This document shows positions 12,103-57,682 of a stretch of 64,000 nt of DNA, piece by piece. Positions within the stretch are counted from its first letter, which is position 1; each line of letters opens with the position of its first letter. Origin of the DNA: Candidatus Amesbacteria bacterium (GTDB lineage Bacteria > Patescibacteriota > Microgenomatia > CAZETR01 > Amesbacteraceae). Both the position numbers and the translations under genes were made by a program. The DNA is taken from NCBI GenBank assembly GCA_963736875.1, contig CAVTQH010000003.1, forward strand, positions 65,756-129,755, written 5' to 3'. Under the pieces are notes generated by a model that made no database searches, was not told the DNA's origin, and worked only from the letters and a program-made list of their open reading frames with translations.

Positions 12103-13861
12103 GTGAGGTATAATTTCGCTGGTATGATGTTTTCCGTTCTGGCCGGCTATCTGGAAAAATTAGAGGAGACGAGTTCGAGGCTGGAGATGACGCGGGTGCT
12201 GGCACGGCTTTTAGACGAGGTGGAGCCGGAGAGAGGGGAAAGCGACAACGTATATGATTCAGGGGATGCTGGGACCGAAATACAATAATCCGGATATGGG
12301 GATGGCGGAAAAACAGGTAATTAAAGCAATTGAAAGACTGAGTGATCAGGATGTAGTAAAAGTGTTTAAATCAGAAGGAGATTTGGGGCTGACAGTTGAG
12401 AAAATCAAATTACAAAAATTAAATAATAAATCAAATTCAAAACTCAAAGTTCAGGATGTTTTTGTGAAACTGACGGAAATTGCGAAAGTAGGCGGGGTGG
12501 GGAGCCAGGAAGAGAAGATTAGGAAGTTAAGCGATTTGTTGACCGGGTTGGATCCCAAATCGGCAAAATACGCGGTGAAAATGGTTTTGGGAAGGATGCG
12601 GGGCGGGTTTTCGGATATGACAATACTGGATGCATTGTCCTGGATGACGACGGGCGATAAAAGTTTACGGCCGGAAATTGAAAGAATATACAATGTAAGG
12701 GCGGATTTGGGGGAAGTGGTGAAGATGGTTAAAAGCAGAAGACCGGAAGAGCTGAAGAATATTAGAGTTGATCCGGAAACGGGGGTACCGATTTTAGTGG
12801 CCCGGGCGGAAAGGGAAAAAACAATCGGGAAAATCTGGGAAAGATGCGGGATTTCAGCAGCCGAGCATAAACTGGACGGATTGAGAATAGAGGCACATGT
12901 CAATAAATCACAAATAACACTTTTTTCCAGGGGTTTGGAGAATGTGACAGGAATGTACCCCGATATTGTAAAAGGGCTTAAAGAGCAGGTGAGGAAAAAT
13001 TGTATTTTAGACGGAGAAATGATTGCGGTGGGCAGGGACGGTAAATACCTGCCTTTTCAGGAGACAGTACAGAGAAAGAGGAAATATGACATTTTGGAAA
13101 TGATGGCTGAAGTACCTCTGAAATATTATATTTTTGATATTTTGGCAGTTGGTCGAAAAAGCATGTTAGATGAGCCGAATGAAAAAAGGTGGGAAGAATT
13201 AACCAAAGTTCTTCAGAAAGGAGAGACGGTGAGATTGATGCCCAGAAGGATGGTGAAGTCGGAAAAGGAGATGGAAGAGTTTTTCAGGGAAGCTTTGGCT
13301 GACGGTACCGAGGGGATGGTGGTGAAAAAATTGGACGGGATTTACCGTTCCGGCAGCAGGGACTTTAATTGGATAAAGTATAAAAAAAGTTACCAGGAGA
13401 CTGGGGAAGCGGATACAATTGATGCAGTGGTTATGGGATATGACGCCGGGCAGGGAAAGCGGTCAGGTTTTGGCGTAGGCGGATTTTTGATCGGGGTGTA
13501 TGACAAAAGGAGGGATAAATTTCTGACCATTGCCAAAATCGGAACGGGATTAAAAGATGAGGAGTGGAGACAGTTGAATGAAAAATGCAAAATTTATGCC
13601 GTAAAAAGCAAACCGGATAATTATGAAGTGAGTAAACAAATGGAGTGCGACGGATGGGTAAAGCCGGAGATGGTAGTGGAAGTGAAATGTGATGAGATTA
13701 CCAGATCGCCGATGCATACCAGCGGATATGCGCTGAGATTTCCCAGGTTGATTAATTTCCGGGAAATGAAAGTGGAAGATACGGCAACTCCCGGTGAAAT
13801 AATCAGATTGTTTGAATTACAAAGTAAAAAAACGAAGGGAGGTGGAGAAGATGGCGGTTAA
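12103..13861 (+). CDS. ATP-dependent DNA ligase (one frameshift near 12235-12255, GGGG/AAA run)
   Basis: N-terminus 'FSVLAGYLEKLEETSSRLEMTRVLARLL' matches ATP-dependent ligase DNA-binding domain. Downstream frame carries the adenylation domain ('EHKLDGLRIEAH' KxDG lysine motif) and OB domain. The two ORFs (12103-12288, 12254-13861) are in different frames. Confidence 0.75.
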
Positions 13862-16905: not shown

Positions 16906-17814
16906 ATGGCAGATATATATGATGTAATTATTATCGGGAGCGGGCCGGCGGGACTGACAGCCGGAATTTATACATCGAGAGCGGATTTGAAAACACTGAT
17001 GCTGGCCGGTGAAAAATGGGGAGGGCAGTTGCAGCTGACAACACTTGTCGAAAATTTTCCCGGTTTTGCCGACGGGATACAGGGACCGGATCTGATGGCC
17101 AATATGCGCAAGCAAGCAGAAAAATTCGGAGCTGAAGTTAAAGATGAAGGTGTAAAGGAAGTCGATTTCGGGAAAAAGCCGTTTAAAGTGAACAGTTATA
17201 GTGCCAGGTCTGTCATCATCGCCACCGGGGCGGAATTTAACTGGCTGGGACTGCCTTCCGAACAGCGACTGATAGGGAAAGGCGTATCGTCCTGTGCCAC
17301 CTGTGACGCAGCCTTCTTTCGAAGTAAAAAAGTAATCGTTGTCGGCGGGGGAGATGCGGCAATGGAGGAAGCACTGGTTTTAGCAAAATTTGCAGGTGAA
17401 GTGACAGTAGTCCATCGCCGGGACAGTTTCCGGGCGTCGAAGATTATGCAGGAGCGGGTACTGTCACACCCGAAGATTAAAGTGAAATGGAATACGGAAA
17501 TAACTGAAATAACAGGGGAGAATAAAGTCGAAGGAGTGACATTTAAGGGTGGTGAAAAAATGCCGGTGGACGGCGTATTTGTGGCTATCGGGCATAATCC
17601 GGCGACAGAGGTATTCAGAAACAAAGTTGAGCTGGATGAAAAAGGTTTTGTCAAAAAAGCGCCAAGAGACGGATTTACTATGATGACGTCGGCTCCCGGA
17701 GTGTTTACGGCAGGGGATGTGCACGACCATAATTACAAACAGGCGATTACAGCGGCGGGGTTTGGCTGCCAGGCGGCGTTGGAGGCGGAAAAGTGGCTGG
17801 AAGAGAATAAGTAA
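16906..17814 (+). CDS. trxB: thioredoxin-disulfide reductase
   Basis: 'YDVIIIGSGPAGLTAGIY' FAD site, 'CATCDAAFF' redox-active disulfide, 'VVGGGDAAMEEA' NADPH site. Confidence 0.9.
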   Translation: MADIYDVIIIGSGPAGLTAGIYTSRADLKTLMLAGEKWGGQLQLTTLVENFPGFADGIQGPDLMANMRKQAEKFGAEVKDEGVKEVDFGKKPFKVNSYSARSVIIATGAEFNWLGLPSEQRLIGKGVSSCATCDAAFFRSKKVIVVGGGDAAMEEALVLAKFAGEVTVVHRRDSFRASKIMQERVLSHPKIKVKWNTEITEITGENKVEGVTFKGGEKMPVDGVFVAIGHNPATEVFRNKVELDEKGFVKKAPRDGFTMMTSAPGVFTAGDVHDHNYKQAITAAGFGCQAALEAEKWLEENK

Positions 17815-17858
17815 ATTGGGACTTGAAAGAAAAAATATTTTTGTTTATAGTGGCCCGT

Positions 17859-18431
17859 ATGGCAGTCAAAAGAGGACCCGGTGGAAGGTTTGCACCCAAG
17901 TCGGAAAGCGGTGATTTTTGGTCTGAAACATCCAGGTCGGCAAAACCGGAAAAGAGCTTTATTGAAAAGGCCACGCCCGTATTGATGGTGCTCGTCGTAG
18001 TGATGGCATTTGCCCTGGGGTCTTTGTGGAGTAAAGTCAAATACCTGGAGCAGGGTGGATCAGGGACTGCAAAAACAGGAGAGCCGGCAGCAGCAGGGAC
18101 CGGACAAGCAGCACAAGGTCCAACGGGGAACGTCCAGGCGTTTCTTGATAAAGTAAAGGGATATGCGGCTAAAGCCGGGATGGACGGCGATAAACTGGTG
18201 AAGTGCGTGCAGTCTGGAAGTAAAAAGAACATTGTGTCCGCGGATATGAAACAGGGGGAAAATGCGGGAGTCCAGGGCACACCGGCATTTTTTATAAACG
18301 GAAAATTTTTAGGCGGAGCGTTTCCCGCAGAGTCTTTTAAAGAGCTGATTGACAGGGAATTGAACGGAACGGGATCAAAAGATTATCAGGATTATAAGGA
18401 TACAAATTTAGCAGAAGGCGGGAGCATATAA
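17859..18431 (+). CDS. membrane-anchored DsbA-family fragment: TM helix + linker + C-terminal half of the DsbA thioredoxin fold (no CxxC)
   Basis: 'ATPVLMVLVVVMAFALGSLW' TM. Then 'YAAKAGMDGDKLVKCVQSG...AGVQGTPAFFINGKFLGGAFPAESFKELIDREL', which is the helical-domain end plus cis-Pro loop (GTP) and the last strands of DsbA/BdbD. Confidence 0.55.
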   Translation: MAVKRGPGGRFAPKSESGDFWSETSRSAKPEKSFIEKATPVLMVLVVVMAFALGSLWSKVKYLEQGGSGTAKTGEPAAAGTGQAAQGPTGNVQAFLDKVKGYAAKAGMDGDKLVKCVQSGSKKNIVSADMKQGENAGVQGTPAFFINGKFLGGAFPAESFKELIDRELNGTGSKDYQDYKDTNLAEGGSI

Positions 18432-18432
18432 C

Positions 18433-18753
18433 CCGCCGGCATTTATTGCCGAACCCAAAAATATTGATGCGGGGAAATCTGCCGTTGAGGGTCCGGGCGG
18501 AGCGAAAGTGACTATTGTCGGATTTACTGATTTCCAATGCCCTTATTGCTCAAGAGGATTTGAGGTCATGAATCAAATAATGAAGGATTATGAGGGGAAG
18601 GTCAGGTTTGTGCTAAAGAATTTCCCGTTGTCTCAGATTCATCCTTATGCCCAGGCCGCAGCCGAAGCGTTTGAGTGTGCCAGAGATCAGGGGAAGGGAT
18701 GGGAACTGCATGATCTGTTGTTTCAGAATCAGGCAGAGTGGTCAGGGGTGTAG
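18433..18753 (+). CDS. DsbA-family N-terminal half with CPYC active site (no ATG; may be fused to the preceding ORF by a 1-nt frameshift)
   Basis: 'AEPKNIDAGKSAVEGPGGAKVTIVGFTDFQCPYCSRGF...KVRFVLKNFPLSQIHPYAQAAAEAFECARDQGKGWELHDLLFQNQAEW' is the N-terminal half of DsbA/BdbD. It begins 2 nt after the stop of the upstream ORF, in the +1 frame. Confidence 0.55.
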   Translation, partial: PPAFIAEPKNIDAGKSAVEGPGGAKVTIVGFTDFQCPYCSRGFEVMNQIMKDYEGKVRFVLKNFPLSQIHPYAQAAAEAFECARDQGKGWELHDLLFQNQAEWSGV

Positions 18754-18762
18754 AATCGGGTA

Positions 18763-19308
18763 ATGAAGCTGGGATCTAAAGAACTGAGAGTAAAGAAACC
18801 AACGGATAAAGAACGGGCTAAGATTGAAAGAAAGCGGATATGGATAGTTCTCGAAAATGTGATGGACACTTATAATATCGGGGCAATTTTCCGCCTGGCT
18901 GACGCGGTGGCTGCCCGGGAAATGATTTTGTGCGCTGGTACGGAAGTTCCCCCGTCTTCACGGATTCATAAAGCGGCGGTGGGGACTGAAAACTGGGTGG
19001 CATGGAAGTACTTTCCGAGTGCTTTGGAAGCCTTGTTAAATCTTAAGGTTAAAATGCCGAACCTGAAGATAATTGTAGTAGAACAGGATAGTAAAGCAGT
19101 AGATTTGTTTAAGCTGGCGTACCGGGTACCGGAAGACCAGCCGATCGCGGTAGTGGTGGGGCATGAGACGGAGGGGGTATCACAAGAAGTGCTAGATTTG
19201 GCCGATACGATAGTAGAAATTCCCATGTGGGGGGTGAATAAATCCCTGAATGTAATGGTCAGTCTGGGGATTGTACTGTATAAAATACTGGAGAATCGGG
19301 AAGGTTAG
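18763..19308 (+). CDS. SpoU/TrmH family RNA 2'-O-methyltransferase
   Basis: 'IVLENVMDTYNIGAIFRLADAV' motif 1 and 'VVGHETEGVSQEVL...SLNVMVSLGIVLY' SPOUT knot motifs. Confidence 0.75.
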   Translation: MKLGSKELRVKKPTDKERAKIERKRIWIVLENVMDTYNIGAIFRLADAVAAREMILCAGTEVPPSSRIHKAAVGTENWVAWKYFPSALEALLNLKVKMPNLKIIVVEQDSKAVDLFKLAYRVPEDQPIAVVVGHETEGVSQEVLDLADTIVEIPMWGVNKSLNVMVSLGIVLYKILENREG

Positions 19309-19314
19309 CGGGGA

Positions 19315-20811
19315 TTATTTGCCGATGGTGAGGGCGACGCTGACAGCGGCGTTTTCCTGTTTGGGAAGCTTGGCGTCCGGGGGCAGGACCAGATTTACAG
19401 AAGTAACAAATGATTCCTTTTTGCCGCTGATATCGATAGGCTCAGTAGAAATTGAGGCAGGGGGAGGAGTGTTTTCCGGAACCCAGATATCAAGTTGTTC
19501 GGGGGTGACGGTGGTTTTTTGGATACTTAAACCCCTGGCTAACTGCCCCTGGGTATGGACCTTGATACTGACCGGGGCGGAGTAATATTTATTGGCAGTT
19601 AAAAGAATAACGGAAGGTTCGACGGAGGTGACCAGAAGATTTAAGGGTTGCTTGACAATTGAAGGGGAGAGAGCCAGCTTGTTGACCCCGTTATGAATGG
19701 AGGAAGCATCAATCTCGAGAGCAAAACTGTCCCGGTCGGCCTGACTGAAAGAAATTTCACCCCGGCCGCTGACGGTAAGAGACACTTCTTTGGGACTGTA
19801 GCTTTGAATAAGGGTGTCGGGAGGAATATCGGTGAAAGTAACGGGGATGGTATAGGACTTGGTGATAATACCCGCCTGGTAGGCACTGAAAAACCATAAG
19901 ATGCCTGCAGAGAAGATAGCTGCTGTTTTTAGTCCGAAATTGTGGCTGATAAATCGATGAAACGGGGTGGAGGAGGAATCAGTGAACTTTTCCCTGACGA
20001 ATTTATTCAGTTCTTTTTCCAGGTCGGAAAAATTGTCCAGCGTTTTCATCCGGCCGTTGTGACAAACGGAAATTTTACCTTTTTCTTCCGAGACGACCAG
20101 GCAGAGGGCGTCGGAATTTTCCGAAAGACCTAATGCCGCTGAATGTCTGGTGCCATGTTTGCCGATTTCTTTGAAGTTGTTGGATAGCGGGAGATGGACG
20201 GAGAATTTGGAGACGCGGTTACTATTAATGATGACGGCTCCGTCATGGCCGTAGGAATGAGGGTCGAAAATACTTAAAATCAATTCCTCGGAAATTACCC
20301 CGTCAATGGGGAAGCCGCCTTCCAAAAGGTGGTCTAAATCATCTCTTCCCTGAAAAACGATGAGTGCGCCGATTTTATCCTGGGCCATTTTGACACAAGC
20401 CTGAAGAATTTCGGCAGTAGAGGGTGATTGGGAAATCAGGGACTTGGCCTTTATTTGCCGGGTACCGACCAAACCGACCATTTCGAAGTATTTGCGGATT
20501 TCCTGCTGGAAAATGATCACAAAGACGACAATGGAGACACCGAAAAAATATTGGAGAACCAGGGAAGTCAGATAAAGATGAAATATTTTGGCCAGACTGT
20601 AAAGAACGACGGTGGTGGCCAGACCCAATAAAATCAGGAAGGATCTGGTTTTCTGGAAAAGAAAAAACAAGGAGTAAAAAAAGACGGCGATTAAAAGAAT
20701 GTCCAAAAGATCCGTGTAATATAAGTTACCCGTGAAATGAAAAAGACCATTAGGCCCGAATAACCGGGATAAAATATTGGAGGCAAAGTTTCCCGCGATA
20801 ACAGGGTTCAT
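19315..20811 (-). CDS. cdaA: diadenylate cyclase CdaA fused to a CdaR/YbbR-like regulatory domain
   Basis: N-terminal 3 TM. DAC domain with 'GALIVFQGRDDLD', 'DGAVIIN', 'GTRHSAALGLSE' (RHR motif). The C-terminal ~230 aa has YbbR-like repeats ('TVTPEQLDIWVPE...'). Confidence 0.75.
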   Translation of the reverse strand: MNPVIAGNFASNILSRLFGPNGLFHFTGNLYYTDLLDILLIAVFFYSLFFLFQKTRSFLILLGLATTVVLYSLAKIFHLYLTSLVLQYFFGVSIVVFVIIFQQEIRKYFEMVGLVGTRQIKAKSLISQSPSTAEILQACVKMAQDKIGALIVFQGRDDLDHLLEGGFPIDGVISEELILSIFDPHSYGHDGAVIINSNRVSKFSVHLPLSNNFKEIGKHGTRHSAALGLSENSDALCLVVSEEKGKISVCHNGRMKTLDNFSDLEKELNKFVREKFTDSSSTPFHRFISHNFGLKTAAIFSAGILWFFSAYQAGIITKSYTIPVTFTDIPPDTLIQSYSPKEVSLTVSGRGEISFSQADRDSFALEIDASSIHNGVNKLALSPSIVKQPLNLLVTSVEPSVILLTANKYYSAPVSIKVHTQGQLARGLSIQKTTVTPEQLDIWVPENTPPPASISTEPIDISGKKESFVTSVNLVLPPDAKLPKQENAAVSVALTIGK

Positions 20812-22312: not shown

Positions 22313-23803
<1,491 letters not shown>

Positions 23804-27706: not shown

Positions 27707-28159
27707 ATGTTAGGTGAAGTATTTGACGGAATTCCGGGAGTGAAGTTACACAAAGCGGCTTTTCTTATGGCTAAAAGAGTGGAGCGGGAATTGGTGGCTC
27801 GGACGGAACTGACATTTCACCAATTTATGATGCTGGTAATGGTAAAACATAAAGAACATTGCAAGCAGATGGAGATGGCCCGAATGGGGCATTTAACCGA
27901 AGCGGCTATATCGCGGATGGTAGGGGGAATGGTAGAAAAGGGATTGGTAACAAGGAAGGAGAACCCAAAAAGCCGGAGGGAACACGCAGTAGCTTTGACG
28001 GAAAAAGGAAAAAAAAGTCTGGAAAAAGGAATGGAGGTAGCCAAGGAGAGTTTGGGGGAGGTGTTGGATATCTTAACAGCGGAAGAGAAGGAGAAATTGG
28101 ATCTATTATTAGATAAAATATTGAGGTTTGTTTATACTGACAAAGAGAGTTATGCGTAA
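27707..28159 (+). CDS. MarR family transcriptional regulator
   Basis: 150 aa; 'LTFHQFMMLVMV...MARMGHLTEAAISRMVGGMVEKGLVTRKENPKSRREHAVALTEKG' winged-HTH typical of MarR. Confidence 0.7.
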   Translation: MLGEVFDGIPGVKLHKAAFLMAKRVERELVARTELTFHQFMMLVMVKHKEHCKQMEMARMGHLTEAAISRMVGGMVEKGLVTRKENPKSRREHAVALTEKGKKSLEKGMEVAKESLGEVLDILTAEEKEKLDLLLDKILRFVYTDKESYA

Positions 28160-29153
28160 GTATCTGACCAGAAGAAACGTCATTATTGCGATTGTAGTGG
28201 TGTTTATATTGGGATGGTGGTGGAACGGAAGGCGGGCAGCGGATAAAAAAAACGGATCGGTGAAAACTACCGAGGTAACAAGAGGGAAAGTAGTCTCGTA
28301 TCTTTCGGTTTCCGGGCAGGTAAAAGCCGATCAGCAGGCTGTTCTGAACTTTCCGGCTCCCGGGAAACTTTCTTATATCGGAGTAAAAGAGGGGGATTTG
28401 GTCAAATCTGGCAAGTTGTTGGCATCATTGGATTTGGGAGATTTGCAGACGGCATGGAACAGGGCTTATTACCAATATTTGGCAGCTGATGCCAATGCGA
28501 AGCTGGTGGAAGATCAGGTGAAGGATCATGATAAAGATGAATCGTTTGTACAAAAAAATACCAGAGTAGCCGCCCAAACAGCCAGAGATATGGCATATGA
28601 TACGATGCTGGCTGCGGAGCGGGCAATCAATAACGCCAAACTCACCGCTCCTTTTGAAGGAATAGTAACTACTGTTACAGCTACGGCTGTCGGAGATACG
28701 GTAAGCGTGACCGACGGGGTGACGGTGGTTAATCCGAAAAGTCTTTATTTTTCGGCCGAAGTAGATGAATCGGATGTGGGGAAAGTCAGTCAAATTCAAA
28801 AGGTGGAAGTGAATCTGGACGCATATCCCGGCGAGAAATTTTCGGCAAGTATCGGGGAAATCGGATTTGTATCACAATTATCGTCAACCGGAGCAACGGT
28901 TTATCCGGTGAAGTTGCGTTTTCCGCCGGAGGTCTTATCCAAACTGAGAATCGGTATGAACGGGGATGCAAAAATAATTTTGGCAGTAAAAGAAAATGTA
29001 CTGAAACTGCCGGTGGAAGCGATAGTAGACGGAGAAGTGATATTGGATGGTCAGGAGAAGAAAAAGATAAAAGTGGTGACCGGGCTTGAGGGGGATATGG
29101 ATACGGAAATAGTCAGCGGAATAAATGAGGGCATAAAGGTGGTTATCCAGTGA
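28152..29153 (+). CDS. HlyD/MacA-type periplasmic adaptor (membrane fusion protein) of an ABC efflux system
   Basis: N-terminal TM 'VIIAIVVVFILGWWW', coiled-coil region, beta-barrel/lipoyl-like C-terminus; overlaps the marR end. Confidence 0.75.
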   Translation: MRKYLTRRNVIIAIVVVFILGWWWNGRRAADKKNGSVKTTEVTRGKVVSYLSVSGQVKADQQAVLNFPAPGKLSYIGVKEGDLVKSGKLLASLDLGDLQTAWNRAYYQYLAADANAKLVEDQVKDHDKDESFVQKNTRVAAQTARDMAYDTMLAAERAINNAKLTAPFEGIVTTVTATAVGDTVSVTDGVTVVNPKSLYFSAEVDESDVGKVSQIQKVEVNLDAYPGEKFSASIGEIGFVSQLSSTGATVYPVKLRFPPEVLSKLRIGMNGDAKIILAVKENVLKLPVEAIVDGEVILDGQEKKKIKVVTGLEGDMDTEIVSGINEGIKVVIQ

Positions 29154-29166
29154 ACAGGAAAGTGAT

Positions 29167-29876
29167 ATGACGAAAGCAGTTCCGGTCATAGAATTTGTAA
29201 ATGTGGGGAAGGAATACGGAGATCCCAATGAAGGGGGGACGGTGGTGGAGGCGTTGGCGGAGGTAATTTAGGGTCCAAAAAGGGGAATTTGTAGCCATAA
29301 CCGGACCTTCGGGGAGCGGAAAATCTACTCTTTTGCATCTTATTGGTCTTTTGGATAAACCAACTTCCGGAAAAATTTTTGTAGACGGAATAGAAATTTC
29401 AGATTTGTCGGAAAACAGAATGGCTCAAATCTGAGGAATGAAAAAATCGGTTTTGTTTTTCAGCAATTTAACCTGCTGTCTAAAGACAGCCGCTATTATG
29501 AATGTGGAACTGCCTCTTATATACCGGGGCATGGGTCAAAAAGAGAGACATGAGAAATCAAAAAAAGAACTAATGGCAGTTGGCCTTGGGGGATAGATTG
29601 AATAACAAGCCGTCACAGTTATCCGGCGGACAACAACAGAGGGTGGCTATTGCCAGGGCACTAGTGACAGAACCGTCTCTTCTTTTGGCTGATGAACCGA
29701 CGGGAAATCTGGATACCAAATCAGGAATAGAAATTATGAAAATACTTGAGGATTTGCACGAGAATGGGGTAACGATAATTTTAGTGACCCATAATCCGGA
29801 GTTAGCTGATCAGGCAGACAGGCAGTTAATTATCAGGGATGGCAGAATTGTCAAAGATACGGGAGGTAAAAAATAA
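29167..29876 (+). pseudogene. ABC transporter ATP-binding protein (MacB/LolD-type) disrupted by >=5 frameshifts
   Basis: Joining frames gives 'IEFVNVGKEYGD...[36 protein letters not shown]...NEKIGFVFQQFNLL...[15 protein letters not shown]...[12 protein letters not shown]' (Walker A, Q-loop, signature, Walker B). These segments lie in at least five different frames between 29167 and 29580. Confidence 0.7.
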
Positions 29877-31089
29877 TGGACCAGACAGAACTATTCCGAT
29901 CGTCAATTAGGGCGATTATCACGAATAAAACCAGATCGGCTCTGACGGCATTGGGAATAATTATCGGTGTAGCGTCGGTGATATTGCTGGTATCTATCGG
30001 TAGTGGCCTGGAGCGGTACGTGACCAAGCAATTTGAAAGTCTGGGAGCGAATCTGGTATTTGTGGCACCGGGAAAAATAAAACTTATCCGGCGGCGGCGG
30101 CGGGGACCCCCGACGGGTTTTACTTCCAAGTTTACTTTTGATGATGTCAGGGAACTGGAGAGGTTGGGAGACCCGATTTCGGGAGTAAGCGGGATACTAA
30201 CGAAATCCGGAACTGCTAAATACGGAAGCAAATCATATGACGTAACAATTATGGGTATAGATGAAAAATATCCGAATATGTCTAACATTAAGCCTCAAAA
30301 AGGACAGTCTATTACCAAATCAATGGTAGAAAGATCACAAAATATTACAATGGTAGGACCGAAAGTTGTAGAAAATTTATTTCCTTCGGGAGCTGATCCT
30401 ATCGGCAAACAAGTAGACCTGGCAGGAAGGAAGTATGTAATAGGCGGGAGTGACAGAATCTAAGGGTGGAGGTATAGGGGGGAGCGGGGATCGGGACAGT
30501 ATTGTGTTTATACCGGTAACAACTGCCCAAAAAATGATGGGTACAAAAAGTCCGGCGATCGATAATTGTCCAAGCTAGCTCTTCTGATGGTGTGGCGGTG
30601 GTAACCAGGGAAATAAAGAGATATTTTTACAGGAGGAAATTGACTGATGATGATTTTACCGTTTTGGAGCCGAAACAAATATTGGAAACTGTAAATTCAT
30701 TTTTGGGAGTGATTACTGTAGCGTTGTCGGGAATTGCTGCTATTTCACTGGTGGTGGGGGGAATCGGAATTGCCAATATCATGTTTGTATCAGTTACCGA
30801 AAGAACCAGGGAAATTGGTTTACGTAAAGCTCTGGGAGCAACAAAAAGAGATATCCTGATGCAATTTTTAATTGAATCGCTAACTCTATCAATATTGGGG
30901 GGAGGGGTAGGAATTCTTATTGGGGGAGGGCTTTCGATACTGATGAATAAATTTATTGAGACGTATGTAACATTGAACTCAGTTATCCTATCTTTCGGGA
31001 TTTCGGCAATAGTGGGAGTTGTATCCGGAATTGCTCCGGCAATCAGGGCGGGGAACCTAAATCCGATTGATGCACTGAGGTATGAATAA
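29876..31089 (+). pseudogene. ABC transporter permease (MacB/FtsX family) with two frameshifts
   Basis: ORF 29876-30463 (TM1 + periplasmic domain) and ORF 30592-31089 (FtsX 3-TM domain ending 'PIDALRYE') sit in different frames. A third frame in between encodes 'GGGIGGSGDRDSIVFIPVTTAQKMMGTKSPAIDN'. Shifts at a G-run (~30446) and ~30565. Confidence 0.65.
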
Positions 31090-31345: not shown

Positions 31346-31459
31346 CTGATTTGGTTGTCAGTCCCGGTCCCGCTTTGTACGGGATCGAGATTGACAACCA
31401 AAATACCGGTTGCTCTTTGAAAAGTGAAGAAAATAAAGTAGTAGAGCCGTATTTTTTAT

Positions 31460-34737
<3,278 letters not shown>

Positions 34738-34794
34738 CGACACTCTATTACTAAAATTTTCTTCACCTTTCAGGGAGCAAAGAAGGCAAGTTTT

Positions 34795-34912
34795 TCCCGG
34801 TCATCTGAGCGGCGTGGAACTACCTCTTCCCATTCCGAACAGAGCCGTAAAATGCGCCAGCGCGGACAATAGCTAAGTCGCGAGACTTCGTGAAGATACG
34901 TCATGGCCGGGA
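34795..34912 (+). rRNA. rrf: 5S ribosomal RNA
   Basis: Helix I CCCGGTCAT / ATGGCCGGG; internal 'CCCATTCCGAACAGAG...GCGCCAG' loop-C/helix-III region. Followed by a T8 run (34922-34929). Confidence 0.8.
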
Positions 34913-41241: not shown

Positions 41242-42111
41242 TTGAGGATGTATATGAAAACAAATAATTTGCGGTCGGTGATCTTTGGTGCAGCCTTGTT
41301 TACAGGCTTATTATTTTTGGGATCCGGACCGGTTGAGGCCAGGATGGATTACGGTTCGGGATATTATGTGAATTTATGCGACAGCGGTACCGCAGCCACA
41401 TACTACAATTGTGATCCGGGATGTGATCCCCGGACCGGGTCCTGTACCAGCATTAACAACGGTGTGGTCAAATGGGTGTGTCTGGGTAAGTGGAATCAGT
41501 GCCTGGAATCTGAAAGTCAGTGGACAAACTATGAACAGGTCGATAATGTCGGATGCGGTTACACAGTGCAATTGTCACTATTTGATAAAAAATGCCGCAG
41601 GGAGGACGGGAGCTGGGATGCCGGATGCAGATTATTGGGATACATGGTTTGGTATTCAGGGGAGTGTTGGGAAGCGGGGACGATGGTAACACCCAAACCC
41701 AGTCCGACCAAGGTACCGATTGCCACAGTCACGCCGACGATTAAACCGAAAATTAACCCCACGGCGGTGATTGTATCCAAATTTACCAATCAGGCGGCAT
41801 CTTCTCCGGCCAAATTGACTCCGACACCGACTGCGGCACCCGTGGTCAAAATGTGCGGGCAAAAATGTCAGCAGGCGGCGGATTGTCAGGCAGGTTTTGC
41901 CTGTATTGAAGCCGTATGCCGCAATCCGGGATGTCCTTCCGATAAAACCTGTTTTTGCCAGGGTGGATCGGCTTCAGCCTCCGCGGTGTCAAAAATGAAT
42001 CCGGATACCGGAGTGGAGACCTGGCTGGGGATGGCCGGTATGGCAGCTTTGGGGGCTTTGGGAATGAAGCTGAAACGGGTAGCTAAAAAGGTATGGCGGG
42101 GGAGATCTTGA
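41242..42111 (+). CDS. secreted Cys-rich protein with Pro/Thr-rich stalk and C-terminal sortase sorting signal (NPDTG + TM + basic tail)
   Basis: Signal peptide 'MKTNNLRSVIFGAALFTGLLFLGSGPVEA'. 16 Cys in the N-terminal domain and a second Cys cluster 'CGQKCQQAADCQAGFACIEAVCRNPGCPSDKTCFCQ'. C-terminus 'SASASAVSKMNPDTG-VETWLGMAGMAALGALGM-KLKRVAKKVWRGRS'. Confidence 0.6.
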   Translation: MRMYMKTNNLRSVIFGAALFTGLLFLGSGPVEARMDYGSGYYVNLCDSGTAATYYNCDPGCDPRTGSCTSINNGVVKWVCLGKWNQCLESESQWTNYEQVDNVGCGYTVQLSLFDKKCRREDGSWDAGCRLLGYMVWYSGECWEAGTMVTPKPSPTKVPIATVTPTIKPKINPTAVIVSKFTNQAASSPAKLTPTPTAAPVVKMCGQKCQQAADCQAGFACIEAVCRNPGCPSDKTCFCQGGSASASAVSKMNPDTGVETWLGMAGMAALGALGMKLKRVAKKVWRGRS

Positions 42112-42143
42112 CAAAATCAGGATAATATCCTATAATATGGGGT

Positions 42144-42884
42144 ATGAAATTGAACTTTTTGGTAATTTTAGGCTTGATTTGGGGAATGGTTTTGGCTTTG
42201 GCTTGGCCTCAGAGGGTCGTGGCTGCCTGGCCGAAGCTGAAAATTGAGTACACGGCCAGAAATCTGACAAGCGGATCTGCGTGGGGGGAAAGCCTGGATG
42301 CCAATACGGGAGACAAACTGGAATTAAAAGCGGTATTGAGTAATACCGAACCCGGATCGACAATACAGGATGTGAAGATAATGGTGCCGCTGTCCGATGA
42401 AAGGCTGGTTTTACACCAGCGCTTCCATCTGCGGGCTTTAAATTCGGGGAGTCTGGATACGGAAGTTGCAGTCAGTGTGCCGTCCGGGTATATGGTTATG
42501 GAGTATCTGCCCGGGACTTCAAAATTGACTGCCGGGGGGAATAGCCGGGGGATTTCTCCGGATACCGATTCCACCAATATCACAACCCAGGAAATTGCGA
42601 TAGGGAATATCCCCTACGGGGACGGGAATGCGGTTACCATCACGTATCAGGTGCAGATAATGGAGAGTAAAAAAGAGGCTTCCGGTTCCGGATCGAAAGC
42701 GGCCGCGGAAGGAGCGATAGGCGGATCCGGTACAGCCAGTGCATCCGCGGTTGCTAAATCAAATCCAGAAGCCGGTATCGGTGACTGGGTATCGTCACCG
42801 GCTTTGAGGTGGTTGATGGTGGGAGTTTTCGGGGTGGGCTTGAAAACCTGGGGAAGAAAGATCCGGGAGCAGACTTTGGTGTAA
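42144..42884 (+). CDS. secreted protein with C-terminal sortase sorting signal (NPEAG + TM + basic tail)
   Basis: Signal peptide 'MKLNFLVILGLIWGMVLALAWPQRVVAA'. C-terminus 'GSGTASASAVAKSNPEAG-IGDWVSSPALRWLMVGVFGVGL-KTWGRKIREQ'. Confidence 0.55.
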   Translation: MKLNFLVILGLIWGMVLALAWPQRVVAAWPKLKIEYTARNLTSGSAWGESLDANTGDKLELKAVLSNTEPGSTIQDVKIMVPLSDERLVLHQRFHLRALNSGSLDTEVAVSVPSGYMVMEYLPGTSKLTAGGNSRGISPDTDSTNITTQEIAIGNIPYGDGNAVTITYQVQIMESKKEASGSGSKAAAEGAIGGSGTASASAVAKSNPEAGIGDWVSSPALRWLMVGVFGVGLKTWGRKIREQTLV

Positions 42885-42894
42885 AGTTAAAAGT

Positions 42895-43650
42895 GTGAAG
42901 AAAGGAATAATTTTTCAAAAAGGGTTACCTACGGAAGAAGTGAGAATATCATCGGCAGTGGCAATACTTAGAACGGCGGCCAGGGTTGTCAGTTGGATCG
43001 GATCGGCTCTGATAATGATTTCGGTATCGGGGCTGGTATTTGTGTATATACCGCTCGGGATAGCCGAAGTGCGGTATACATTTTCAAAAACCCAGTTGTC
43101 CAGGGCGATTCAAAATACGCGAAACCAGGCCTGGACACAAAAATTGAATGAAAATAAAACCGGAGGACGGTCTGTGAGTAAACCACCGGAAGATAATTTA
43201 CCCAGAGACTGGGCAGTTCCGGATACGAATTATTCGATATACATTCCCAAAATTTATGCAATTTCCCGGGTAATTCCCAACGTGGATGCGGGAGATCCGA
43301 AAGTCTATTTACCCGCTTTGAAAACGGGGGTAGCGGAAGCTTTGGGACTGTCCCATCCGGGGCAGACGGGAACGACTTATTTATTTGCACATTCAGTGGG
43401 TACGAGGTGGGATTTTGCAAGATATAATGCGGTATTTTACCTGCTGGAAAAATTGGAGATAGGAGACAGGGTGGAAATTGTGTACGGCGAAAAACTTTAT
43501 AAATACGAGATGGCGGAGCGGGAAATTCTGGCAGCTTCCGATACCAAATACCTGATACCCCAGACAATTTCGGAGAAGCTGGTTTTAGCCACCTGCTACC
43601 CTCCGGGGACAACCTGGAAGCGGCTGGTGGTAGTGGCTAAAAGAATTTAA
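42895..43650 (+). CDS. sortase family transpeptidase (membrane anchored)
   Basis: N-terminal TM; catalytic His 'TYLFAHSVG', Cys in 'LVLATCYPPG' (TLxTC motif) and Arg 'WKRLVVVA'. Immediately downstream of the two NPxxG substrates. Confidence 0.75.
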   Translation: MKKGIIFQKGLPTEEVRISSAVAILRTAARVVSWIGSALIMISVSGLVFVYIPLGIAEVRYTFSKTQLSRAIQNTRNQAWTQKLNENKTGGRSVSKPPEDNLPRDWAVPDTNYSIYIPKIYAISRVIPNVDAGDPKVYLPALKTGVAEALGLSHPGQTGTTYLFAHSVGTRWDFARYNAVFYLLEKLEIGDRVEIVYGEKLYKYEMAEREILAASDTKYLIPQTISEKLVLATCYPPGTTWKRLVVVAKRI

Positions 43651-55764: not shown

Positions 55765-56430
55765 ATGGAAGGACCCATCGATAATGAATCCCCTGATTTG
55801 ATAAGAGCAAAAGACATTAATATTATAAAAATAGAAGATCCGGGTCAGAAGCAGAAAATAACGGTGATATTACATGAAATGATCAAGGATTCAGAAACCC
55901 ATCCTATACAAGGAATCGTACCCAAGGAAATGACAAAAGAAGAGATTGAAAAAGCAACCTCAAGTTTAAAGATATTTTCCGGAGTCAATGGTTATGAAAA
56001 GTGGTATACAGAGAACGTCAACCCTTTGAGTAAGAAGGATAAATTTAAACTCCGGTTATCTTTTTTGGGTGCCGGAGCCGTATTAGCAACTGATCAGGGG
56101 GATAAGGATAAAAGCAGTTGCATAATATTATTAGAACCTAAAGTTAAGTATTTACTGCATGAGTTGAAGCATTTTGCCGACTATACGGTTTTTGGTAAGG
56201 AATATGTTGATAAAACTGCAAATTTACCATCGCCTATACCCTGGAGAATTATCCAGACAGCATTGTCGATATCCGGTCCGATAATAGGTGTGAAATATCC
56301 GGAAACAGGATTGTATATCAGTTCTTTGGCCTTAGGATTGTTAGCAATTAGTTTGATTGTAGAGTCTAAATATCGTTTAAATACAGGAGAACGGAGATCC
56401 TCTAAGGCAGAAGAGAAATTCTTAAACTGA
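55765..56430 (+). CDS. hypothetical protein (221 aa, C-terminal TM)
   Basis: ORF only; hydrophobic 'LYISSLALGLLAISLIV' near the C-terminus. Confidence 0.35.
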   Translation: MEGPIDNESPDLIRAKDINIIKIEDPGQKQKITVILHEMIKDSETHPIQGIVPKEMTKEEIEKATSSLKIFSGVNGYEKWYTENVNPLSKKDKFKLRLSFLGAGAVLATDQGDKDKSSCIILLEPKVKYLLHELKHFADYTVFGKEYVDKTANLPSPIPWRIIQTALSISGPIIGVKYPETGLYISSLALGLLAISLIVESKYRLNTGERRSSKAEEKFLN

Positions 56431-57682
56431 TTCCAGTATTTGTTTTGCAAGTTTGTAAGAGTTACCGGAACCCATGACAACTACGATGTCAAGACCGGAT
56501 TTATGGGAGACGAGATATGAAACAATTTCATTAAATTCCGGAATATAAATGGCGTTGGGGTGGTGCATGGCTTTAATGATGTCAGCTCCGGTAAAATCTC
56601 CCGGATCTTTTTCCCGGGAGGCGAAAATTTTTGAGACTATCACGCCATCTGCTTTTCTTACAGCTGTCGGCAGTAGGTCTGACATAACCCTGAGACGGGA
56701 GAAGGTGTGGGGTTCAATAATAACAGTCAATTTTTGACCGGGATAGAGTTCCTTGATTGCAGAAATGACAGCGGCAAAAGATGAGGGATGGTTGGCATAG
56801 TCGTCATATACCTTAATGCCGTTTTTTTCACCCAGAAAATCCAGCCTGCGTTCAAGGCCCCGGAAGTTTTTGAGGGCGGAAGTTAAATCCCGGCCGGAAA
56901 TTTTTAAAACTTCGGCAAGTTTGATTATCGCCAAAGCATTCGATTTGTTGTGGTTGCCGGGCTGGGAGAGGATCAGGTTTTCGGGAAAGTCAGATAAACG
57001 GTAAGGGACGGAGTTTTCAGGAAATTTCAGTTTACGGGAAAGCGGGGAGTCGGCGTTGAAAATTACCACTCCTCCCGGTTTGAGACGGTTGATAAAACGC
57101 TGGTAACAGGAAAGCATGTTTTTAATGGTGCCGAAATATTCGGGATGATCGTATTCCACCAGAGTCAGAAGAATTACGTCAGAATGATAGGTGGCAAAAT
57201 TATCATGGAATTCATCGGCTTCGCAGATGAAATACCCGGATTTTCCGATACGGACATTGTTCTGCCAATCTTTTACCGTGGCTCCCTACTTCAACTGTAG
57301 GATCGAGACCCGCTTTTTCCAGAAGAAGTCCTGCCATGGCTGTGGTGGTGGATTTGCCGTGGGTACCTGCGACGCAAATGACATATTTATCCCGGTGGAG
57401 GTATTTACCCATAAAGTCCTGCCATTTGGTTAATATACCTTTTTCTTTTCCCAGGGCTGTTTCCGGGTGGTCGTCGTTTTGGTAAAAAACTGCGGGAGTG
57501 ACAGCCAGAATATCCGCATTATCCAAATGGGCCGGGCTGTGACCGGAATAGAGTTTGATACCCGGTTTTCTGACTTTTTCAATGTAAGGCGTATCCAGTG
57601 AGAGGTCGCAGCCGGAGATTTGGTAGCCTTGGGAGCGGGCAATCTGGGCGACGGCGGACATGCCGGAGCCGCCGATGCCCAT
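56422..57682 (-). CDS. murC: UDP-N-acetylmuramate--L-alanine ligase with one frameshift (~57278-57284, GGG run)
   Basis: N-terminal ORF (57682-57212) 'MGIGGSGMSAVAQIA...YVICVAGTHGKSTTTAMAGLL'. Its tail reads '...EVGSHGKRLAEQ*', whereas the -1 frame reads 'GATVKDWQNNVRIGK', the expected MurC sequence. C-terminal ORF (57159-56422) 'VEYDHPEYFG...DDYANHP'. Confidence 0.8.

Follow-up and report, generated by a model that had tools for sequence, protein, structure and literature searches.

The locus described here raises the question of whether two adjacent reading frames, each carrying one half of a DsbA-type oxidoreductase and standing in reversed order, represent one circularly permuted protein, two separate pieces or an artefact. 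It is located at positions 17859-18753 of a 64,000-nucleotide (nt) stretch of the Candidatus Amesbacteria contig CAVTQH010000003.1 (positions 65,756 to 129,755), which we refer to as the window and in which all coordinates are given. We consider it very likely that the locus encodes one protein, a membrane-anchored, naturally circularly permuted oxidoreductase of the DsbA/BdbD/MdbA type (PF13462), here called cpDsbA, the gene of which is split in the available sequence by a single extra G that is most probably an error.

The region was translated in all relevant frames before comparison with Pfam. It was found that the first open reading frame (ORF1, 17859-18431, 190 amino acids (aa)) contains a G-T-P loop and lacks a CxxC motif, and that its aa 99-165 match positions 98-164 of the 165 positions of PF13462 (E = 2.9e-10); ORF1 also matches positions 125-190 of the 191 positions of PF01323 (DSBA; E = 4.3e-11). 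The +1 frame is open from 18409 to 18753 and matches positions 5-93 of PF13462 (Thioredoxin_4; E = 7e-16), with a CPYC motif at 18538-18549. The two PF13462 matches are complementary and abut, which is far beyond chance. An initial annotation, made from the sequence alone, had described ORF1 as a transmembrane segment, a linker and the C-terminal half of a DsbA without CxxC, followed in the +1 frame and without an ATG by an N-terminal half that carries the CxxC and ends where the homology of the first piece begins, with both motif sets intact. The Pfam positions, the hydrophobic anchor and the presence of both the G-T-P loop and CPYC agree with this description, including the domain order of C-terminal half first and N-terminal half second, and the proposed fused length of ~305 aa had to be corrected, to 297 aa.

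After removal of base 18411 (see below), the repaired window protein reached 96.7 bits with PF13462, for which the cut-off is 23.2, and 74.4 bits with PF01323, for which it is 25.6. When its halves were re-ordered in silico, N-terminal half and then C-terminal half, a single contiguous match to PF13462 resulted (positions 5-164 of 165, 105.6 bits), with nothing missing or duplicated. Therefore, the rearrangement is a clean circular permutation. The C-terminal half contains the last helices of the helical domain, the cis-Pro loop (G-T-P, 18276-18284), the last two β strands and the final helix, and the N-terminal half contains a core strand, the CPYC motif, helix 1, the next strand and the first two helices of the helical domain. 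The canonical order, in which the CxxC half precedes the cis-Pro half, was found neither in the window nor in the 98 homologues described next, and so the protein is a permuted variant and not a canonical member of the family.

A search with the fused sequence yielded 2,248 homologues, the top of which was dominated by single polypeptides of ~236-320 aa. The homologues that we numbered P0001-P0119 align in a single alignment over 86-100% of the repaired cpDsbA. In 85 homologous clusters formed at 90% identity (236-319 aa), 80-100% of the fused query was covered in one alignment, and these proteins therefore have the same order of anchor, C-terminal half, linker and N-terminal half. Hidden Markov models (HMMs) of the half-domains, built from the family alignment, were used to classify the collected proteins and loci by order: at least 98 proteins were C-then-N, 16 units were single N-C, and 721 units were in tandem (N-C)x2-6 arrays. 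The permuted genes were found in Patescibacteria (Gottesmanbacteria, Amesbacteria, Levyibacteriota, Woesebacteria and Kerfeldbacteria) and in Chloroflexota (Dehalococcoidia, Thermoflexus and Anaerolineaceae). All permuted members terminate a few residues past the '...LF.NQ..W' helix, and the break point is common to the Candidate Phyla Radiation (CPR) and Chloroflexota, as is the linker motif ELxG(T/S)xS..(D/E)Y, which is shared by the CPR core group and the Chloroflexota group. Judged by these sequences, the permuted DsbA is a conserved family in Patescibacteria (CPR) and Chloroflexota. In their sources, the homologues are named only 'protein-disulfide isomerase', 'thioredoxin domain-containing protein', 'DsbA family protein' or 'hypothetical protein'.

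Among the 98 family members, the CxxC motif reads CPYC in 68, CPFC in 29 and CSFC in 1, and its cysteines (C249/C252 of P0001) are invariant in the 85-sequence alignment, as are T163 and P164 of the cis-Pro loop (P0001 numbering). Besides CPYC, there are two further invariant cysteines, C138 and C295 of P0001, which correspond to Cys116 and Cys273 of the repaired window protein. This pair is complete in 97/98 permuted proteins; among 737 normal-order units, 115 have both cysteines, 620 have neither and 2 have a single one. One cysteine of the pair is in a helix close to the new N-terminus, its partner is in a helix close to the new C-terminus, and a conserved Cys116-Cys273 disulfide probably staples together the N- and C-terminal helices of the cut helical domain.

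To obtain a structural view, AlphaFold2 was run on P0001, an intact relative that is 93% identical to the repaired window protein, with the 85-sequence alignment. The model was one compact domain, a thioredoxin core with an inserted helical domain, with a predicted local distance difference test (pLDDT) score of ~98 over residues 110-319; the linker between the halves was modelled at pLDDT ~98 as well and contains a short helix, and a helix at residues 56-86 is the equivalent of the window anchor. The best Foldseek match in the PDB was 1un2, an E. coli DsbA that had been circularly permuted by engineering (E = 1.2e-5, 203 aligned columns, TM-score (template modelling score) 0.64 normalised to the target, 18% identity to the family), whereas native DsbA, BdbD, ScsC and DsbG aligned over only ~90-100 columns, that is, over one half. 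When the family profile was compared with PDB sequences, C. diphtheriae DsbA/TsdA and B. subtilis BdbD were each matched in two stretches, and in the alignment with 7unn (C. diphtheriae TsdA) the two stretches are in swapped order. Residues 104-159 of E. coli DsbA correspond to profile positions 68-123, the first of which is only a few residues into the domain, and by count the new termini would be located in the helical-domain loop at about residues 98-100 of E. coli DsbA, the loop that is cut in 1un2. Each fold element thus occurs once, a linker joins the old termini, and the new ones are located within the helical domain. The proposal of a circularly permuted thioredoxin fold in the order transmembrane segment, C-terminal half, N-terminal half is therefore upheld by the Pfam order, the homologues, the 1un2 match and, on the relative P0001, the AlphaFold model.

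The position of the frameshift was evaluated by comparison with L001, the contig that encodes P0001. Over window positions 17804-18800, the two sequences are ~90% identical and differ by exactly one indel, an extra G at 18411 in the context AATTTA[G]CAGAAG; no other indel is present in the 1,041-nt alignment with L001. Without this base, there is an ORF of 297 aa with 93% identity to P0001. This bears out the earlier suggestion that a single-base indel separates the halves and that its removal joins them in one ORF. Any one-base deletion within 18409-18431 fuses the frames, and the indel had been placed in the GGCGGG run (~18417-18422). However, removal of 18411 yields NLQKAGAYNPP, which is identical to P0001 and keeps the family-conserved 'AGA', whereas removal of a G from the GGG run yields NLAEGGAYNPP and, in our reading of the L001 alignment, requires 6 DNA mismatches instead of 1. 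The GGG run was therefore rejected as the site, on DNA parsimony and on the loss of the conserved 'AGA' motif. The ratio of nonsynonymous to synonymous substitution rates (dN/dS) relative to L001 was 0.058 upstream and 0.024 downstream of the shift, with dS ~0.7. Both halves are under strong purifying selection, and the downstream value indicates that the CxxC half is under selection in its own frame.

The extra G is one of several such lesions: at least seven other single-base frameshifts were found in conserved genes of the window, namely those encoding MurC, an ABC ATPase and an FtsX permease, and one-base insertions account for 7/8 of the window frameshifts when 18411 is counted, several of them in short G runs. 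The murC gene (UDP-N-acetylmuramate--L-alanine ligase, minus strand) is split into frames at 57212-57682 and 56422-57285, of which the upstream frame corresponds to residues 24-153 (1gqq numbering) and the downstream frame to residues 154-458 (9ir5 numbering), starting from ~154; the +1 shift near 57285 is probably an extra G in a GGG run. In an operon for a MacB-type exporter (membrane-fusion protein (MFP), ABC ATPase and FtsX permease; 28128-31089, plus strand), the membrane-fusion gene is intact, the ATPase gene (~29201-29876) has at least 4 shifts and the permease gene (29876-31089) has 2, and conserved motifs are still readable; this operon contains either a local assembly error or is decaying. 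MurC is normally essential, and the bias toward insertions together with a shift in such a gene therefore favours a technical insertion error. We thus regard the extra G at 18411 as probably an assembly or sequencing error, and the locus is probably one gene with a sequencing frameshift and not two ORFs. There was no record of the exact ORF1 product (exact look-up, contig index), and scans of metagenome DNA with a frameshift-spanning pattern, with or without the extra base, and with a conserved upstream 41-mer gave 0 matches and so no independent copy.

As to how the permuted form arose, tandem (N-C)x2-6 DsbA arrays of up to ~1,200 aa are abundant in Myxococcota and also occur in Chloroflexota (L011-L079; P0121-P0269). 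In a library of representatives at 50% identity, 12,075 matched the family profile at E <= 1e-30, and most of the listed top matches were tandem arrays; the best 150 matches of this search were mostly multi-repeat tandem DsbA arrays. Between tandem repeats, the C-to-N junction can be aligned to the permuted protein without a break, over profile positions ~70-263. The permuted form would have arisen from such arrays by loss of the outer half-domains, that is, by duplication and then truncation, and we consider this the most plausible origin. In a nearest-neighbour identity analysis, the ten-nearest-neighbour purity of the permuted proteins was 0.97. No literature on tandem multi-DsbA-domain proteins was found.

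The repaired chain has one hydrophobic helix with a Lys/Arg-rich N-flank, and by the positive-inside rule its N-terminus would stay in the cytoplasm and the catalytic domain would be extracytoplasmic. From the N-terminal side, the chain would run from the cytoplasmic tail through one transmembrane helix and a flexible tether into the second half of the helical domain, and then through the cis-Pro loop with the last strands and helix, the ~45-residue linker and the CPYC β-α-β unit to the first half of the helical domain. The tether differs in length and sequence between homologues. In our best reading, the protein would be a membrane-anchored disulfide oxidase of the BdbD/MdbA kind, with its N-terminus inside and its C-terminus outside, and it most likely oxidises cysteine pairs of secreted proteins. 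Elsewhere in the window (41242-43650, plus strand), two secreted proteins are encoded directly upstream of a sortase (42895-43650), with C-terminal sorting signals (NPDTG and NPEAG) that both precede a hydrophobic stretch and a basic tail. The first of them (41242-42111), which has the NPDTG-type signal, is 289 aa long and contains 18 cysteines, and it is a plausible client of cpDsbA.

Several points weigh against parts of this interpretation. CPYC also occurs in the isomerases/reductases DsbG and ScsC, and the conserved presence of trxA and trxB nearby could point to a role as a reductase or isomerase. Neither DsbB, VKOR nor CcdA was found among the ~58 ORFs scanned in the 64 kb of the window or beside eight related genes, and we therefore only infer the redox direction. 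The Cys116-Cys273 bond and the active-site geometry are inferred. With respect to a single origin, the Chloroflexota, Woesebacteria and Kerfeldbacteria members resemble some normal-order units about as closely as they do the CPR core group. Finally, the assignment of the extra G to error comes from comparisons, the G at 18411 is outside any homopolymer, and six of the other frameshifts cluster in one ABC-transporter operon, which could be a true pseudogene and so say little about a general error rate.

These last points bear on the possibility that the frameshift is real, in which case the permuted DsbA would have been inactivated recently and would be a young pseudogene, with only the anchor and a C-terminal half fragment without CxxC being made. 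The extra base does stand in the given sequence without a homopolymer to explain it, and the heavily frameshifted ABC-transporter operon in the same window may reflect true decay. Nevertheless, we consider a real frameshift unlikely: apart from the low downstream dN/dS, the CxxC half has no further lesions, all 98 relatives are intact, the normally essential MurC also has a one-base insertion, and a preponderance of +1 insertions (7/8) is unusual in natural decay but typical of technical error.

A functional two-piece DsbA, with separate translation of the two ORFs and non-covalent assembly of their products into one thioredoxin fold, had been left as an option by the initial annotation and is very improbable. 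Both motif sets are intact, and a GTG at 18508 has a GGAG upstream of it, across a spacer of 5 nt. However, this GTG, which is the sole start candidate in a second frame that has neither an ATG nor a signal, is inside the first core strand, so that initiation there would truncate the linker strand, and the codon is GTA in the 93%-identical relative and is thus not conserved. Furthermore, the second piece has no signal peptide or anchor and would hence be cytoplasmic while the first piece is outside, and a split form is not seen in any of the 98 homologues.

Joining of the halves during translation, by programmed +1 ribosomal frameshifting at UUA-G-CAG, is likewise hardly to be expected. A +1 shift at 18411 would yield exactly the conserved protein, but the nearest relative does not have the extra base and the other relatives are single ORFs, so that the site is not conserved in orthologues. 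In addition, the site lacks a slow codon, a stop and any known +1 slippery motif, and similar +1 insertions are present in unrelated genes of the window.

That the reversed order came about from a normal-order dsbA, through local misassembly or as a tandem-duplication artefact, can be dismissed almost entirely, although normal-order and tandem DsbA genes do occur in related phyla. The order that the initial annotation had asked to be sought in related genomes was found in 98 independent single polypeptides, which come from many different assemblies and sources with contigs of 0.2-1.2 Mb among them. In addition, trxB-cpDsbA-SpoU synteny is conserved on the flanks, and AlphaFold2 folds the permuted chain at pLDDT ~98. 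Orthologues in the normal order were to have refuted the permutation; the orthologues instead have the identical order, and it is the artefact that they refute.

The reading of the locus as one permuted gene with a probable frameshift error is mapped in Table 1, together with the features that surround it.

Table 1. Positions in the window of the parts of the cpDsbA gene, its putative promoter and the adjoining genes.
Feature	Position	Strand	Details and basis
trxA	16510-16866		gene order
trxB	16885-17814		gene order
Promoter-like site, TTGAAA-17-TATAGT	17823..17851	+	10/12 consensus positions; ends 7 nt before ATG
cpDsbA gene, circularly permuted DsbA-family	17859..18753	+	297 aa with base 18411 removed; stop codon 18751-18753
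Putative cytoplasmic N-terminal tail, aa 1-37	17859..17969	+	8 Lys/Arg; read from sequence
Single transmembrane anchor, aa 38-57 (ATPVLMVLVVVMAFALGSLW)	17970..18029	+	hydrophobic stretch, conserved in homologues
Gly/Ala/Thr-rich low-complexity tether, aa 58-90	18030..18128	+	pLDDT ~50 at equivalent P0001 residues
C-terminal half of DsbA fold, aa 91-170	18129..18368	+	PF13462 98-164, PF01323 125-190, AlphaFold2 secondary structure
Structural Cys116 in C-terminal half (probable)	18204-18206	+	cysteine co-occurrence
Linker from ancestral C-terminus to ancestral N-terminus (GTGSKDYQDYKDTNLQKAGAYNPPAFIAEPKNIDAGKSAVEGPGGA)	18369..18504	+	~45 residues; frameshift inside
Extra G, breaks reading frame	18411..18411	+	only indel relative to L001
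N-terminal half of DsbA fold, aa 216-297	18505..18750	+	PF13462 5-93, AlphaFold2
Structural Cys273 in N-terminal half (probable)	18676-18678	+	cysteine co-occurrence
SpoU-type methyltransferase	18763-19308		gene order

In the trxB-cpDsbA intergenic region (17815-17858), the 43 nt before the ATG are identical in L001 despite the coding dS of ~0.7, and in L090 and L086 a -10-like hexamer is likewise located 7 nt before the ATG. This suggests that cpDsbA may have its own promoter and a leaderless mRNA. The order trxA-trxB-cpDsbA-SpoU recurs in L086, L088, L089 and, in part, L090, which carry relatives at 46-54% identity, and more distant members adjoin an MFP-ABC-FtsX exporter.

Beyond the SpoU-type gene, a 498-aa protein is encoded on the minus strand (19315-20811) that consists of a CdaA N-terminal membrane domain, a diadenylate cyclase (DAC) domain and YbbR; the same fusion is present in L086. 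Firmicutes have CdaA and the YbbR-domain regulator CdaR as two distinct proteins. At 12254-13861 (plus strand), the window encodes an ATP-dependent DNA ligase that has N, adenylation and OB domains; genes for a PCMT methyltransferase and a peptidyl-tRNA hydrolase are located downstream of it. The 16S rRNA gene (22314-23803) is separated by ~7.6 kb of protein-coding genes from tRNA-Ala, 23S and 5S (31456-34912), and the 23S match spans 3,281 nt compared to the 2,925-nt model, which suggests ~350 nt of inserted sequence. CPR bacteria typically have unlinked rRNA operons that contain insertions.

The textbook example of an enzyme that forms disulfides is DsbA, which was also one of the first proteins to undergo random circular permutation in the laboratory. 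The natural family has the topology of the laboratory construct and is maintained by purifying selection in two large bacterial groups. If the natural cpDsbA family is as described here, the tether enters via the helical domain and not via the thioredoxin core, so that the active site would be presented differently to substrates or to a re-oxidant. The family would be a natural test case for the origin of circular permutants from tandem repeats, would reveal which cut sites evolution tolerates and would raise the question of whether a moved membrane tether alters how an oxidoreductase meets its substrates and partners. Labels that are blind to domain order, such as 'DsbA family protein' and 'thioredoxin domain-containing protein', hide the permuted architecture. 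In this assembly, which has several further single-base insertions, the locus is best annotated as one gene.

The full-text literature searches, which extended to thioredoxin folds and thiol-disulfide oxidoreductases, returned no natural permuted DsbA, BdbD or MdbA, only engineered DsbA and general papers on the detection of permutations, and there is no NCBIfam model that spans the permuted architecture. The engineered protein is that of Hennecke, Sebbel & Glockshuber 1999, as cited in PMC3281007 and PMC13552848. The enzyme family, the concept of permutation and the laboratory-made topology are already known, and the natural, conserved family appears to be undescribed in the literature searched. 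As a tentative proposal, which we put at slightly less than an even chance as a whole, cpDsbA may represent an undescribed, ancient and widespread natural family that arose from tandem arrays, is cut at the cpDsbA_Q100T99 loop, is stapled by a disulfide and possibly has a partner other than DsbB or VKOR.

In comparison to known systems, the permuted family very probably falls within fam000318, a CPR-enriched family of MdbA-like, membrane- or wall-anchored CxxC thiol-disulfide oxidoreductases with a proposed role in pilin oxidation (Meheust et al. 2019, PMC6744442). In the description of fam000318 available to us from that paper, the permuted order is not mentioned and VKOR adjacency is given for 88/750 genomes, compared to 0/9 contexts here (the window and eight related genes). 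The tandem multi-DsbA proteins of Myxococcota, Chloroflexota and others have a C-to-N junction like that of the permuted protein and are the expected intermediates of permutation; they differ in having whole domains in the normal order, most without the helical-domain cysteine pair. The closest solved relatives by sequence (E = 1e-26 to 3e-23) are BdbD (3eu3), a C. diphtheriae DsbA of the MdbA type (4pwo) and TsdA (7unn), all of them PF13462 oxidoreductases from monoderm bacteria, which share with the family the CxxC, the Thr-cisPro loop, the helical-domain insert and a membrane or extracytoplasmic location, but have the N-terminal half followed by the C-terminal half. The only PDB entry that aligns across the whole domain is 1un2 (engineered E. 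coli cpDsbA_Q100T99), which has the same chain topology, with termini at or near loop 99/100 and the old termini joined by a linker, which we take to be ~5 residues long. However, 1un2 is a laboratory construct of a soluble periplasmic protein with a CPHC active site, whereas the natural family has a ~45-residue, partly structured linker, an N-terminal anchor, CPYC or CPFC, and an extra conserved cysteine pair that probably forms a disulfide.

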